Notes: generated from the letters alone by a model not told the origin. 64,000 bases of DNA from an uncultured Bacillota bacterium (GCA_963804645.1 CAWDRG010000009.1:1216001-1280000), one strand, 5' to 3'. Counted from the first letter of the stretch, positions 7,721 through 37,204 are shown. Program-made: numbers and translations.

Positions 7721-8571
7721 CCTGCCACCGCCGCGCGCGGCGCCGGACGGAGGCGCTTGAGGAGCATCACGTTCTTGCGGTCGGGGCCCGTGCCCGCGAA
7801 CCCGGGCGTCTCGATCACGCCGGGAAGGCGGCCGAGCACGGGGTTGGCCAGCACGGCGCGGAACCCGGCCCGCCCGATCCATCCCTCGCCGATGTTCTCG
7901 TGACGGTCCAGGTGCGATCCAAGCGCGCCCTTGGAGTCGTTGAGATGCAGGACGCGCAGGTGGCGCGCGCCGACGGTCCGGTCGAACGCGGAAACCGCCG
8001 CGGCGACGCCGCGCGGCGTCCGCAGGTCCCATCCGGCGGCGTACAGGTGCGCCGTGTCGAGGCAGATCCCGAGCCGCCGGTGGCCGACCGTGTCGAGGAT
8101 CTCCCACAGCTCCTCGAACCGGCCGCCGATCGTGCCGCCGGCGCTTCCCTCGAGCAGGACCATCGCGCGGCCGCTGTCGCGCAGCGCGCTCCGGATCGCG
8201 CGCCCGATCCGCCGCCGGGCCTCGGGCCAGGGCGCGCCGACGGCGCTGCCGATGTGCGTGATCGCGGCGAGGCCGCCGAGCGCGTCCATGCCTTGGACGG
8301 TGTGGGCGAGGGCGGCGACCGAGCGGCGGTGCAGGCCGGGATCCGGCGCGGCCAGGTTGATCAGGTACGGCGCGTGGGCGACGAGCGGCTCGAGGCCCGC
8401 CGCCCGCCGGCGCCGGCGGAACTCGGCGAGATCGGCCGGCTGATACGCGACGCGCCGCCACTGGCGCGGGCTGCCGACAAAGATCTGCAGGCACTCGCAG
8501 CCGATCGCCTGGGCACGGGGGATCGCGTCGTAGATGTGGCCGCTGATGGAGACGTGGGCGCCGATGGGCAC
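7717..8571 (-). CDS. nfo: Endonuclease IV
   Basis: 'IGAHVSISG', 'HAPYLINLA', 'CLDTAHLYAAGWD', 'HLNDSKGALGSHLDRHENIGEG', 'IETP'. Confidence 0.93.
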   Translation of the reverse strand: MPIGAHVSISGHIYDAIPRAQAIGCECLQIFVGSPRQWRRVAYQPADLAEFRRRRRAAGLEPLVAHAPYLINLAAPDPGLHRRSVAALAHTVQGMDALGGLAAITHIGSAVGAPWPEARRRIGRAIRSALRDSGRAMVLLEGSAGGTIGGRFEELWEILDTVGHRRLGICLDTAHLYAAGWDLRTPRGVAAAVSAFDRTVGARHLRVLHLNDSKGALGSHLDRHENIGEGWIGRAGFRAVLANPVLGRLPGVIETPGFAGTGPDRKNVMLLKRLRPAPRAAVAG

Positions 8572-8705
8572 GCCGAGATGGTTCGGGGCGGCCGGTGGTC
8601 CTTCCCTGCGTCGGCGGGCGGAGGAGCGCTCCCGGCGGCTCGCGAAGCCAGCGCATCACGCCGCCGCCCGCCGACGGGCGGCGCGTGCGGCGAAGGAGGA
8701 CGGCG

Positions 8706-9890
8706 ATGGCCGAACATGCAGGGCGTGGCTTTACGACGCGCGCGGTGCACGGGGGCAAGATCCCCGACGAGAACAAGTCGGTGGTCACCCCGATCTACCA
8801 GACCGCGACGTTTCGCTACGACACGGTGGAGGAGGGCGCCCGGCTCGGCGCCGAGTCCGCGCCCGGCTACTTCTACACGCGCTGGGCCAACCCGACGACC
8901 GACATGCTCGAGCAGAAGGTCGCGCTCCTCGAGGGGGCGGAGGCCGGGCTCGCCGTGTCGAGCGGCATGGCCGCGATCTCGACCGCGGTCCTCGGCCTGG
9001 TGCGCGGCGGCGACCACGTGGTGGCGCCGAAGGCGGTCTATCAGGCGACGTTCGGGATGCTGCACAGCCTGCTGCCGCAGTACGGGGTGGAGACCACGTT
9101 CCTCGACGACCCCGATCTGAGCGCGTACGAGCGCGCGATCCGTCCGAACACCAAGCTCCTGTATATTGAGACGCCGAACAACCCGCTGCTCGGCGTCACC
9201 GACATCGCCGGGGTCGTGGCGCTGGCCAAGGCGTGCGGCGCGTGGACCATCGCGGACAACACCTTCGCGACGCCGTACAATCAGACCCCGCTCGCGCTCG
9301 GCGTGGACCTGGTGTGCCACAGCGCCACGAAGTATCTCGGCGGCCACCACGACGTCACGGCCGGGGTGCTCTGCGGCGGGCGCGACCTCGTCCGGCGGTG
9401 CGTGGGCACGATGCGCATCTTCGGCGGGGTCCTCGATCCGTTCGCGGCGTACCTCGTGGTCCGCGGCATCATGACGCTCGGCCTCCGGATGCAGCGGCAC
9501 AACGCGAACGCGCTCGCGCTCGCGCGGCACCTGGCTGCGCATCCGGACGTCGCCCGCGTGCACTATCCCGGCCTGCCCGGCCATCCGCGCCACGAGGTGG
9601 CGGCGCGCCAGATGCCCGGCGGCTACGGGGGGATGATGAGCATCGAAGTGCGCGGCGACGTCGCGGCCGGCGCGCACTGCGTCGAGGCCCTCCGGGTCGG
9701 CAAGCTGGCCGTGAGCCTCGGCGGCGTCAGCACGCTCGTGACCCACCCGGCCTCCACGACGAGCGTAAATATGCCTCCCGAAGTCCGCCGCGCCGCCGGC
9801 ATCGCGGACGGGCTGATCCGGATCTCGGTCGGCATCGAGGATCTCGACGATCTAATCGCCGACTTCGACCAGGCGCTCGTGCAGATCTAG
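8706..9890 (+). CDS. Cys/Met metabolism PLP enzyme (cystathionine gamma-synthase / methionine gamma-lyase family)
   Basis: RBS AAGGAGGA; 'PIYQTATF', 'YTRWANPT', 'SSGMAAI', 'DNTFATP', 'HSATKYLGGH'. Confidence 0.9.
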   Translation: MAEHAGRGFTTRAVHGGKIPDENKSVVTPIYQTATFRYDTVEEGARLGAESAPGYFYTRWANPTTDMLEQKVALLEGAEAGLAVSSGMAAISTAVLGLVRGGDHVVAPKAVYQATFGMLHSLLPQYGVETTFLDDPDLSAYERAIRPNTKLLYIETPNNPLLGVTDIAGVVALAKACGAWTIADNTFATPYNQTPLALGVDLVCHSATKYLGGHHDVTAGVLCGGRDLVRRCVGTMRIFGGVLDPFAAYLVVRGIMTLGLRMQRHNANALALARHLAAHPDVARVHYPGLPGHPRHEVAARQMPGGYGGMMSIEVRGDVAAGAHCVEALRVGKLAVSLGGVSTLVTHPASTTSVNMPPEVRRAAGIADGLIRISVGIEDLDDLIADFDQALVQI

Positions 9891-34582: not shown

Positions 34583-36517
34583 ATGGGCAACGGAAATTTT
34601 CGGCCGGGCACGTGGAGTAAGCTCCCGTCCAATTGTTCCCGTGATTACAACCTCACGTTTACACGCTGCGCGCAGTGGGGCAGCTACGCCTTCAACCAGT
34701 GCCTGTCGTGGATCGTCAACGCGACGGTGTCGTGCGTGCAATGGGCGTGGCAAGCGGTACAGACATGCGTGGCATGGGTTACCAATGCGACGCAACAGTG
34801 CGTCTCGTGGGCCCAGCAGGCCTCGCAGAACTGTTGTACCTGGTGGCCGTGCTCCTGGGGCTGCGCCATCGTCACGACCATCATCAGCTGGGTCTGCCTG
34901 CTGGTGCAGATCGTCGTCACGGTGGTCTGCGTCGTGTTCGCGATCATCGTCACCGTGTTCTGCGCCCTGTTCGCCGTCATCGTGACCGTCGCGTGCGCCA
35001 TATGGGCCGTGCTTGTCTACGTGTTCTGCGTGTTCTGGAGCGTGATCTCCATCATCTTCTGCATCTCCAACGCCAACGGCGGAACCGCGTTCCTGCTCAC
35101 CGACGGAACCGTGATGATGCAGGAGTGCTACGAATATGCGTACGGCGTAGGCATCCAGACCCGCAGATGGTGGAAGCTCTCACCCGACCAAAATGGCAGT
35201 TACGTCAACGGATCCTGGAGCCGTCTTGCGGATTCCACCCAGGCGCGGAAGTACTTCGCCTCCGCCGTGCTCGCCGACGGCAGGGTCCTGGTCTGCGGCG
35301 GTGAGTACTCTGACGCCGGAAGCGATACGAACACCTGCGAAATTTACGACCCCGTAGCCAACTCATGGACGGTGGTGAACACTCCCACGACCGGCGGGAA
35401 CCAGCCCCAGACATGGGGAAACATCGGCGACTCACCGAACACGGTACTGCCCGACGGCACATTCCTGCTGGGCTCGCTGAACTCCGCGAATATCGCCAAG
35501 CTCGCCCCGGCGACCCTCGCCTGGACAGCGATGAGCCAACGTCCGGTAGTGAGCAGCAGCGCTGAAGAATCCTGGGTGCTGATGCCCGATAACACCATCG
35601 CCACCCCAAGCTGTTCCGATGCCCCCACAACCTGGGTCTACGACATCGCCAGCGACCAGTGGAATCAGGGCAACAATCTGCCGACCAGCATCGTCCTTCC
35701 GCCCAGCGGAGACGTTCCTGAGACTGGACCGGCCCTGCTCCGCTACGACGGCACGGCCTTCTTCCTCGGCGCCAACCAGCACACCGCCGCGTACTCGGCC
35801 GCTGCCAACCCGCAGTGGACCAACGGGCCCGATCTGCCCCCGCTGTCCGGCTCGAACATCGGCATCATGGATGGCCCCGCCGCGCTGCTGACCAACGGGA
35901 ACATCCTCTTCGGCGCAGGTCCCATCGATGCCGCGGGGGACTTCCTGAGTCCCAGCTCCTACTTCGAATTCGACGGCACGCAATTCAACCGCACGAGCGA
36001 TCCGTCGAACAACAACTGCCCGACGTACGTGACCCGGCTGCTCCTGCTTCCGGACGGGAGCGTGATGTTCTCGCGCGAGGATGACTCATCGTTCTACGCG
36101 TATCAGCCCGCCTCCCCAACGCCGCAGGACAGTTGGCGGCCCGTCATCCAGAGCTGTCCTGCGAATCTCGTTCCTGGCAGTACGGTGCAAATCTCCGGGC
36201 TGCAGTTCAACGGGCTCTCGCAGGCCGTCGCGTACGGCGACGACTCCTCGGCCGCCACCAACTACCCGCTGGTCCGCGTCACCAACACCGGCAACAATCA
36301 GGTGCGTTACTGCCGCACCTTCAATCACACCACCACCGACGGCGGGGGCAACACCATTCCGTCCATGGGAGTGGCCACCGGCGCCGAGGTCATCACCACC
36401 AATGTCGCGATCCCATCGGATCTGAGTTCCGGCTCGTACGCGGTCGAGATCGTCGCCAACGGGATCGCGTCCCAACCCTTCAACGTGACGGTCGGCACCC
36501 GTCGCTCCGATGGCTGA
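34583..36517 (+). CDS. Kelch-like beta-propeller protein with an N-terminal Cys/Trp 11-residue repeat insert
   Basis: RBS GAGGTG; 16 Cys in aa 18-160; kelch-like blades 'RKYFASAVLADGRVLVCGGEY...CEIYDPVANSWT'; C-terminal Ig-like tail 'VEIVANGIAS'. Confidence 0.8.
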   Translation: MGNGNFRPGTWSKLPSNCSRDYNLTFTRCAQWGSYAFNQCLSWIVNATVSCVQWAWQAVQTCVAWVTNATQQCVSWAQQASQNCCTWWPCSWGCAIVTTIISWVCLLVQIVVTVVCVVFAIIVTVFCALFAVIVTVACAIWAVLVYVFCVFWSVISIIFCISNANGGTAFLLTDGTVMMQECYEYAYGVGIQTRRWWKLSPDQNGSYVNGSWSRLADSTQARKYFASAVLADGRVLVCGGEYSDAGSDTNTCEIYDPVANSWTVVNTPTTGGNQPQTWGNIGDSPNTVLPDGTFLLGSLNSANIAKLAPATLAWTAMSQRPVVSSSAEESWVLMPDNTIATPSCSDAPTTWVYDIASDQWNQGNNLPTSIVLPPSGDVPETGPALLRYDGTAFFLGANQHTAAYSAAANPQWTNGPDLPPLSGSNIGIMDGPAALLTNGNILFGAGPIDAAGDFLSPSSYFEFDGTQFNRTSDPSNNNCPTYVTRLLLLPDGSVMFSREDDSSFYAYQPASPTPQDSWRPVIQSCPANLVPGSTVQISGLQFNGLSQAVAYGDDSSAATNYPLVRVTNTGNNQVRYCRTFNHTTTDGGGNTIPSMGVATGAEVITTNVAIPSDLSSGSYAVEIVANGIASQPFNVTVGTRRSDG

Positions 36518-36569: not shown

Positions 36570-36893
36570 ATGAACCTGCGCGCCCGATTCAATCCCGGGA
36601 AGCGAACGCCGGCCGGCCCCGGCCCGGTGGATGACTGCGGGTGCGCCACGGGCGCCCAATTCATGGGTGTGGCGTTTGCCGGTTCCACAGCGTGGTATCT
36701 CTCGCGATGGCACGCGTATTCCGTTGGGGGAATCTGCGGGCGCGTCCTGCTCGTCTCCTTCGCCGCCGCCGTCCTGGGAAAAATCGTCGGCATCGTTCGG
36801 TACCGTTCGAAACACTCCCGGTCCTCACCGCCGTCACGCCGCCGTCAAGCCGTAGACAAGCACGCACTCGCGAATCTCGGAGAGCGTGGTTAG
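36570..36893 (+). CDS. Small hypothetical membrane protein
   Basis: RBS GGAGG; 'DDCGCATGAQF' followed by two hydrophobic segments. Confidence 0.55.
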   Translation: MNLRARFNPGKRTPAGPGPVDDCGCATGAQFMGVAFAGSTAWYLSRWHAYSVGGICGRVLLVSFAAAVLGKIVGIVRYRSKHSRSSPPSRRRQAVDKHALANLGERG

Positions 36894-37021: not shown

Positions 37022-37044
37022 CCGTGCACAACCACATAGCAGCA

Positions 37045-37185
37045 GCCTTCGGGGCAGGGTGAGCCGGGCACGCGCTCGGCAATTCCCGATCGGCGGTACA
37101 GCCCGCGAGCCGGGCCGCGGTGGACGCGGCCGGGCAGGATCTGGTGAGAGTCCAGAGCCGACGGTATAGTCCGGATGGAGAAGGC
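37045..37185 (+). ncRNA. FMN riboswitch (RFN element)
   Basis: GCCTTCGGGGCAGGGTGA...AATTCCCGATCGGCGGTACAGCCCGCGA...GATCTGGTGAGAGTCCAGAGCCGACGGTATAGTCCGGATGGAGAAGGC; lies upstream of ribD. Confidence 0.95.
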
Positions 37186-37204
37186 GCCAGCGTGTCGAGC
37201 CATG

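Follow-up and report, generated by a model that had tools for sequence, protein, structure and literature searches.

An uncultured Bacillota bacterium carries a gene whose 644-amino-acid (aa) product is a kelch-type propeller protein interrupted near its start by a ladder of cysteine residues in exact mirror symmetry. The gene lies at positions 34583-36517 (+) of a 64,000-nucleotide (nt) stretch of DNA (GCA_963804645.1 CAWDRG010000009.1:1216001-1280000), the whole of which is called the window, and it is followed by a small gene for a putative membrane protein with a Cys-Gly-Cys (CGC) motif, referred to here as the partner. The ladder and the partner are likely to be an undescribed way of bringing enzymes without a signal peptide ('leaderless' enzymes) to or through the membrane. 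In the reading that we prefer, and to which we give a probability of about 40%, the ladder would form a rod that, together with the CGC membrane partner, serves as a device for the membrane delivery and tethering of such an enzyme. The bases of this reading are the mirror register of the ladder, the co-variation in length of its arms, their helical periodicity, the mobility of the module among enzymes, the linkage of the two genes and the loss of the signal peptide by the propeller. The ladder had been pointed out in a preliminary description made from the sequence alone; the invariant CGC and the downstream membrane gene (36570-36893) are features beyond it.

The cysteine ladder and its paired arms

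The ladder cysteines lie at residues 18, 29, 40, 51, 62, 73 and 84 on the outgoing arm and at 94, 105, 116, 127, 138, 149 and 160 on the return arm, every step being 11 residues. The mirror axis of this 143-residue insert is Pro89, and the seven Cys pairs each total 178. None of 20,000 shuffles of residues 1-200 reached seven mirror pairs, the best giving six on a single occasion. The symmetry claimed in the preliminary description is therefore real, and the two extra cysteines that it placed inside the tip, Cys85 and Cys90, are present in the translated open reading frame (ORF). Its account of the arms was right in part: the return arm is indeed hydrophobic (mean Eisenberg hydrophobicity 0.82), with no charged residue from 94 to 159, but the outgoing arm, said to be largely polar, is amphipathic (mean 0.10).

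The register is shared by homologues. From 95 candidates, 55 relatives cover the ladder region of the window gene (matches to aa 14-166), and among them the full-length propeller relatives have five, six, seven or eight rungs, with both arms altered together. The strings of spacings on the two arms are identical in 133 of 168 distinct proteins with a canonical tip (three trivially so), whereas 5,000 shuffles of the arms average 24 and never exceed 41. The remaining mismatches are by one rung in 14 proteins and by more in 21, many of the latter being fragments. A first step of seven residues is found on both arms in 36 relatives and on a single arm in none, and the number of rungs across relatives runs from 3 to 12. 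The mirror register is thus kept as length varies, the shorter steps being paired across the arms, and the ladder clearly exemplifies the concerted evolution of repeats at two sites.

That the ladder is an insertion follows from ladder-less relatives, which join the W..L..xP strand directly to the LLTDG strand. The flanks had been assigned to consecutive parts of one blade, and this part of the claim probably needs correction. Going by the established kelch pattern, we take them to be the last strand of one blade (E10-13 in a model made with AlphaFold2, AF2) and the first strand of the next (E169-171), which are consecutive in the kelch sequence repeat; they would belong to successive blades, and the insert would therefore occupy an inter-blade loop.

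A predicted helical hairpin

The AF2 model, made with a 50-sequence alignment, has helices at residues 22-82 and 91-159, with predicted local distance difference test (pLDDT) values of 73-90 by block and a poorly defined tip. Confidence is low at residues 87-89; the tip is invariant in two alignments. Over 116 non-redundant relatives, the hydrophobicity of each arm has its strongest period at 100 degrees, and the apolar face lies 17 degrees from the Cys stripe in the outgoing arm and 226 degrees from it in the return arm. These opposed apolar faces imply a hairpin with one polar and one greasy edge, and the direction of the return-arm moment means that the greasy edge would have to be buried, in a bundle or in lipid. 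The outgoing repeats place C, W, A and G at positions a, d, e and h (0, 3, 4 and 7), the core positions of hendecads as given in an excerpt of PMC6131620.

Six 11-residue steps at 1.5 Å per residue make a rod of about 100 Å, and the prediction for the insert is a hairpin of that length built of alpha-helical hendecads. It is very probably an antiparallel helical hairpin in mirror register, and its rungs are probably stapled by disulphides, one per three turns. The long antiparallel hairpin of the preliminary description is upheld by the model and by the retention of register at different lengths, and can be refined to an alpha-helical hendecad. A beta-hairpin is ruled out by the AF2 helices, by the power of the 100-degree periodicity (3-fold and 11-fold the power at 165 degrees) and by the interchange of 7- and 11-residue steps. 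Ordinary transmembrane (TM) helices are unsupported: the 66-residue uncharged arm has no breaks, and in many relatives this arm contains Trp, Asn and Lys with the register kept.

A mobile module

A DNA pattern for the tip matched 119 stretches in GTDB. Fifteen are true ladders, from Acidobacteriota, Actinomycetota, Bacteroidota, Chloroflexota, Nitrospirota and Alphaproteobacteria bins, and most of the others are out-of-frame chance matches. A ladder-only profile yielded 366 clusters at 50% identity. The bodies to which the ladder is attached were counted in the best 150 of these, less one false positive, a leucine-rich repeat protein (P0129) removed beforehand, which leaves 149 representatives. 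They include 27 metzincin-like proteins, 22 DUF4157-like HExxH proteins with a C-terminal ladder, 14 phosphoesterases (PF04185), six propellers, five GH16-type and four GH1 enzymes, four true AA5 proteins (P0077, P0081, P0119, P0143) and three GDPD proteins, and there are further carriers among S8 subtilases, M64, Lipase_3, GDSL, FAD oxidase and DUF4474 proteins. The ladder may be N-terminal, internal or C-terminal. These fusions to unrelated enzymes, found with the ladder alone, bear out the suggestion of a mobile domain. Within lineages the ladder is rare: 2 of 94 genomes from the phylum of the window have it, and 3 of 301 from the order Terriglobales. Searches of Pfam, NCBIfam, PHROG and PDB sequences assigned it to no family, the Atlas gave no usable match for a homologue, and no relatives were found in IMG/VR or among PLSDB plasmids.

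One weak PHROG match of the ladder is to a tape-measure protein (E 0.32), and the rod could be imagined as a tape-measure-like loading module that threads enzymes into the tubes of extracellular contractile injection systems (eCIS) or type VI secretion systems. The position of the HExxH domain, N-terminal in the 22 proteins just mentioned, would suit such cargo, as would a weak match of one member to eCIS_core (DUF4157, E 0.25), a domain named as an eCIS marker in an excerpt of PMC8213781, and the eCIS-type tube gene encoded by the window genome. However, a tube gene is found in 8 of 20 carrier genomes as against 26 of 121 in a background sample, which means that eCIS is not required; tail genes do not recur near ladder loci, and the membrane partner is left unexplained. 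We regard a role as injection cargo as very improbable.

Some further ladder carriers may be noted. GH1 carriers (L196:4759-6842; P0126) have, besides the ladder, a glycine-zipper hydrophobic insert within the glycosidase domain. A ladder-carrying family of about 1,000 aa has no Pfam match (P0074, P0079, P0113, P0137, P0153, P0188). Another group consists of non-enzymatic multi-TM proteins with a C-terminal, often basic ladder (P0135, P0155, P0172, P0200, P0159, P0184, P0091), and their topology could reveal the side of the membrane that the ladder occupies.

The partner gene

The partner of the window gene is modelled by AF2 with helices at residues 25-45 and 52-84 (mean pLDDT 66), and its layout is that of an amphipathic helix, a Cys pair, two helices and a basic tail. 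C23, G24, C25 and K71 are invariant across 53 partner sequences. The mean counts of Lys plus Arg on the N-terminal side, in the loop and on the C-terminal side are 2.8, 1.0 and 4.1, a bias that suggests an N-in/C-in protein with the CGC at the inner, cytoplasmic face of the membrane.

Relatives of the partner adjoin ladder genes whatever the body, among them propellers, zincins and phosphoesterases. A partner is present in 61 of 82 ladder loci longer than 1.5 kb, in 35 of the 37 that have 500 nt on each side and in none of 73 unrelated loci (635 kb). Without near-duplicates the linkage is 25/27, and without the seed loci as well it is 21/23. With respect to the ladder gene, 35 partners are upstream, 26 downstream and one convergent. 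Among five genomes held out of the profile, the partner adjoins the ladder gene in three; of the remaining two ladders, one belongs to a DUF4157-like carrier and the other lies on a contig of 4.5 kb. Searches from the partner side gave seven, four and three matches in 301, 251 and 142 sampled genomes. Three of these are seeds, four adjoin ladder genes (G458, G622, G725, G778) and two are noise; in G318 the partner lies 32 kb from a five-rung ladder gene followed by a transposase-like ORF, and in G169, G275 and G550 the partner is fused or adjacent to greasy hairpins that are not ladders but have a C-x9-C loop.

Such a sporadic, low-GC two-gene cassette with swapped hydrolase domains invites comparison with polymorphic antibacterial toxins. 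The hairpin would then be the part of the toxin that attacks the membrane or effects translocation, the enzyme heads would be interchangeable, and the partner would be an immunity protein against the hairpin, in the manner of the membrane immunity proteins of pore-forming colicins. The partner tracks the hairpin and not the enzyme, is convergent with it in two cases and also adjoins glycine-rich greasy hairpins, and the divergences of partner and ladder are correlated (Spearman 0.70, kinship not removed). Yet CGC and the Lys, invariant in 53 partners, look catalytic or metal-binding, unlike a fast-changing immunity surface. Several passengers (GH1, the FAD oxidase, the window propeller) are not known toxins, and export would be left unexplained. 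A toxin-immunity pair is in our view unlikely.

The layout of the partner also resembles that of MerF and MerT, which have a Cys pair just ahead of their first TM helix, and the rungs might serve as a metal scaffold: dimerised hairpins would offer four Cys per rung for zinc, copper or iron-sulphur centres, with the partner as the donor. Given that there is no signal peptide, the cysteines may never meet an oxidising compartment. An interchain four-Cys site is awkward, however, because the cysteines face the helix of their own chain and the greasy face points elsewhere. Among the 18 Pfam families that the 53 partners match at E 0.1 there is no MerT, MerF, MerC or MerE. Many of the passengers do not require a metal, and mer or other metal-resistance genes are not among the recurrent neighbours; we consider a metal scaffold improbable.

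At cut-off, the 53 partners match no Pfam family and no annotated holin in PHROG, and the Atlas returns unnamed clusters only. The best holin match (Phage_holin_3_6, E 0.0012, in 3 of the 53) is below cut-off, and a fold search found generic helix pairs (best Z 7.1), which is uninformative. A weakly resolved tree of 97 columns separates a short form, nearly always propeller-linked and including that of the window, from a long form common to several bodies.

Some neighbouring features of these loci may be recorded here. In G318, gas-vesicle-like genes (recognised by eye) and the transposase-like ORF lie just 3' of the ladder gene (L266:423-4593, 7994-9391). Among the partner's neighbours that are not ladders are two proteins of similar appearance, with hydrophobic, glycine-rich hairpins and a C-x9-C loop, and one ORF in which a short Cys/Trp hairpin is joined to the partner itself (L228:3-1103, L233:1884-3245, L226:1501-2220). 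The short-ladder HExxH carriers of G103 and G222 (L220:313-1035, L267:6058-7170) have upstream of them genes for similar membrane-anchored helical proteins, possibly a second partner for that class. A family of small unannotated ORFs lies directly upstream of ladder genes at three loci (L129:4168-4893, L152:1360-2085, L196:4426-4758) and is the sole recurrent adjacent family besides the partner.

Signal peptides and a possible route of delivery

The preliminary description saw no classical signal peptide on the window protein, and a crude filter and reading by eye agree. Among 29 loci of ladder-less propellers, the start is signal-peptide-like in 25, clearly not so in one and ambiguous in three (by eye), and neither ladder nor partner lies near any of the 29. 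The same filter flags 9 of 195 ladder carriers; six of these look real, and all six are membrane proteins with a C-terminal ladder. DUF4157-like carriers have their own hydrophobic segment ahead of the ladder in 19 of 20 examined (of 22), and the partner is absent from all three of those checked for it, including one close to the end of its contig. To judge from these starts, the ladder occupies the place of the Sec signal peptide of the propeller relatives. Strict linkage combined with a missing signal peptide is the argument used for holin-dependent export in the available part of PMC9527704.

On the delivery reading, the protein would be synthesised in the cytoplasm with its cysteines reduced. 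The CGC and Lys of the partner, at the inner face, would capture the aromatic C-x9-C tip by a transient mixed disulphide or a shared metal ion, and the partner would shield the greasy return helix. Hairpin and passenger could then be inserted into the membrane or passed across it by a local route of the holin or TatA kind. Outside, the rungs would oxidise and the greasy return helices would be buried, packed together as a small bundle or immersed in lipid, so that the rod would hold the ligand face of the propeller about 100 Å from a lipid-touching Trp-Pro tip, the number of rungs setting the distance. This scheme is modelled on capture by the CPC of Mia40 (PMC12114033) and on holin-linked non-lytic export (PMC9527704), each known to us in excerpt, and the partner and ladder have the defining features of neither family.

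Several points weigh against it. The second partner profile was iterated on the very loci used for scoring linkage. G190 has a partner-like match with neither CGC nor a hairpin neighbour, and no partner was found for the short ladder of G222. None of the genes recurrent in ladder neighbourhoods codes for an oxidase, ABC exporter, endolysin or outer-membrane channel. Ladder-less relatives of the phosphoesterases start without a signal peptide in 13 of 15 cases (two ambiguous), and replacement of a signal peptide by the ladder is therefore shown for the propeller only. In some carriers of the membrane type, a basic ladder follows a TM segment with a basic end (by eye), which would put the ladder inside the cell. 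A CGC predicted to be on the reducing side would fit a disulphide catalyst poorly, and few precedents exist for the passage of a folded propeller of 50 kDa by means of so small a protein, with two helices and about 100 aa.

A tether at the inner face, with no export at all, would accommodate part of this. The partner would dock the tip, the enzyme would stay cytoplasmic at a distance from the membrane set by the rod, and the cysteines would be reduced or bridged by zinc. The predicted cytoplasmic CGC, the leaderless phosphoesterases without ladders, the many passengers acting on lipids (phosphoesterase, GDPD, Lipase_3, GDSL) and the want of recurrent exporter genes nearby are all consistent with such a tether, but the ladder-less relatives of the propeller are Sec-type proteins and strict two-Cys mirror pairing is what disulphides require. 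The passengers, moreover, include copper AA5 oxidases, GH16 enzymes, subtilases and Fn3-like domains, which are normally extracytoplasmic. We judge the inner-face tether somewhat unlikely.

A wider form of the delivery reading is doubtful. In it the system would be a new, minimal pathway of export and surface display, in which the CGC/Lys protein of about 100 aa recognises the aromatic C-x9-C tip, moves leaderless folded enzymes across the membrane with a Mia40-like thiol step and leaves them on a disulphide-closed hendecad stalk of 50-200 Å built in 16.5-Å units, across at least six phyla and more than 10 enzyme families. Were the partner an exporter or a thiol-coupled insertase, the cassette would be a two-gene secretion route with a transferable tag, and it would account for the arrival at the surface of many hydrolases that soil and sediment bacteria make without a leader. 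Whatever its function, the ladder is a natural length-programmable, mirror-stapled hendecad hairpin that should be useful as a design element.

Comparison with known systems

The closest parallels are with the twin CX9C (CHCH) proteins and Mia40/CHCHD4. CHCH proteins are antiparallel helix-loop-helices closed by nested disulphides, and the ladder, with its predicted hairpin and its mirror register, may be closed in like manner. In the Mia40 pathway, as described in an excerpt of PMC12114033, targeting is also leaderless, an amphipathic Cys-bearing helix being caught by the CPC through a mixed disulphide. CHCH proteins, however, have two rungs with CX9C in each helix, whereas the ladder has 3-12 rungs in steps of CX10C or CX6C, with an aromatic C-x9-C tip and only one of its arms greasy; its sole CX9C is the tip loop, and Pfam scans of the window protein and carriers gave no CHCH match. 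The partner differs from Mia40 in being a two-helix membrane protein with CGC, with no CHCH fold, twin CX9C or linked Erv1-like reoxidant.

Holin-dependent export (TpeE, TcdE, type 10 secretion) likewise pairs a small membrane protein, strictly linked, with a leaderless passenger, according to the part of PMC9527704 available. The partner has the generic holin traits of small size, one to three membrane helices and a basic C-terminus, but it has no holin family above cut-off, no linked endolysin and no phage context. That same part of PMC9527704 describes neither a conserved Cys motif nor a Cys-ladder passenger module.

Hendecad helices of right-handed coiled coils share with the ladder the 11-residue period, the a/d/e/h core, Trp-rich amphipathic repeats and a length set by repeat number; 11-mer repeats occur in apolipoproteins, perilipins and tape-measure proteins. 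To these the ladder adds an intrachain Cys pair per repeat, exact mirroring between arms that differ, a tip that is conserved and a partner gene of its own. Nested disulphides across a helix-turn-helix also occur, as far as excerpted accounts go, in small stapled hairpins such as the plant alpha-hairpinins. Alpha-hairpinins are short free peptides with CX3C spacing, unlike stalks of 50-200 Å on enzymes. No description of the ladder-partner module was found in the open-access literature searched, and the libraries searched gave, for ladder and partner alike, no match to a family already described or to a structure already solved.

The propeller body

The propeller with its Ig-like domain has the architecture of AA5 oxidases, and galactose oxidase and GlxA rank highest in Foldseek for the AF2 model (E about 1e-16, TM-score about 0.4 across the whole model). 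The copper-radical residues of AA5 are Cys228, Tyr272, Tyr495, His496 and His581, as defined in an excerpt of PMC11611005. In a profile alignment to ladder-bearing true AA5 proteins, Ala226 takes the place of the Cys and Tyr272 falls in the G282-D283 region, so that the Cys228-Tyr272 pair is not kept, and no His aligns with His581. Counting back from the aligned LLL motif, Tyr482 falls at Tyr495 and the variable Val483 at His496. The NCBIfam GlxA score of the window protein is 20 bits against a cut-off of 800.

Where AA5 oxidases hold copper, the window protein has instead an invariant acid cluster. E241, D283, E328, D430 and D553 are invariant in 49/49 ladder-bearing and 23/23 ladder-less relatives, and E380 is kept in 49/49 and 22/23. 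From this conservation we infer a carboxylate site, for a hard metal or a sugar, at the place of the copper. Going by general kelch architecture, the ladder insert presumably departs from a loop on the same face as the cluster.

The ladder-less relatives of window 35081-36502 (L237-L265) are a secreted galactose-oxidase-fold family that has the acid cluster in place of copper and is annotated as generic kelch only. They are common, occurring in 33 of 151 Terriglobales-order genomes in up to four copies, and a large unannotated family is thereby exposed.

The locus

The features of the cassette are collected in the table. A GAGGTG ribosome-binding site lies 5' of the ladder ORF. The GC content of the ladder gene is 61-64%, against 70% for the window. 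Searches of the ladder locus for DNA tandem repeats and mobile-element ends gave short chance pairs only, and a scan for promoters and terminators stayed at chance level. An identical 184-nt metatranscriptome contig, from small shares of three peat contig sets of one study, bridges the end of the ladder gene and the start of the partner; it proves neither transcription nor an operon, as contigs cannot show either.

Table. Coordinates in the window of the ladder gene, its parts and the partner gene
Feature	Position	Strand	Remarks
Ladder gene	34583..36517	+	644 aa, no signal peptide; in order: closing strand, Cys-ladder hairpin, kelch propeller, Ig-like domain
N-terminal strand, aa 9-15	34607..34627	+	AF2 strand E10-13; contiguous with the LLTDG strand in ladder-less relatives; likely ring-closing propeller strand
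Outgoing arm, aa 18-84	34634..34834	+	Seven Cys 11 apart; predicted amphipathic helix, apolar face centred on Cys
Tip, aa 84-94	34832..34864	+	C-x9-C loop, Cys85/Cys90, three Trp, central Pro89; best-conserved part of the module
Return arm, aa 94-160	34862..35062	+	Seven Cys 11 apart, uncharged; most hydrophobic face directed away from the Cys stripe
Kelch beta-propeller	35081..36112	+	AA5 topology without copper-radical residues; invariant acids E241, D283, E328, E380, D430
C-terminal Ig-like domain	36137..36496	+	Invariant Y551-G-D553 segment
Partner gene, 107 aa	36570..36893	+	CGC at 36636-36644, Lys71 (invariant) at 36780-36782; membrane helices predicted: two; tail basic; GGAGGA ribosome-binding site 5' of the gene

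The cassette is flanked by a divergent M19 dipeptidase gene on one side and by a flavin mononucleotide (FMN) riboswitch and riboflavin genes on the other. The riboswitch (RF00050, 76 bits, window 37041-37189) stands ahead of ribD and the riboflavin genes and is ordinary. About 680 kb from the cassette, the window genome has a sheath-like gene (777 aa, weak match) adjoining a T4 gp19-type tube gene (G000:C9:568994-570140).

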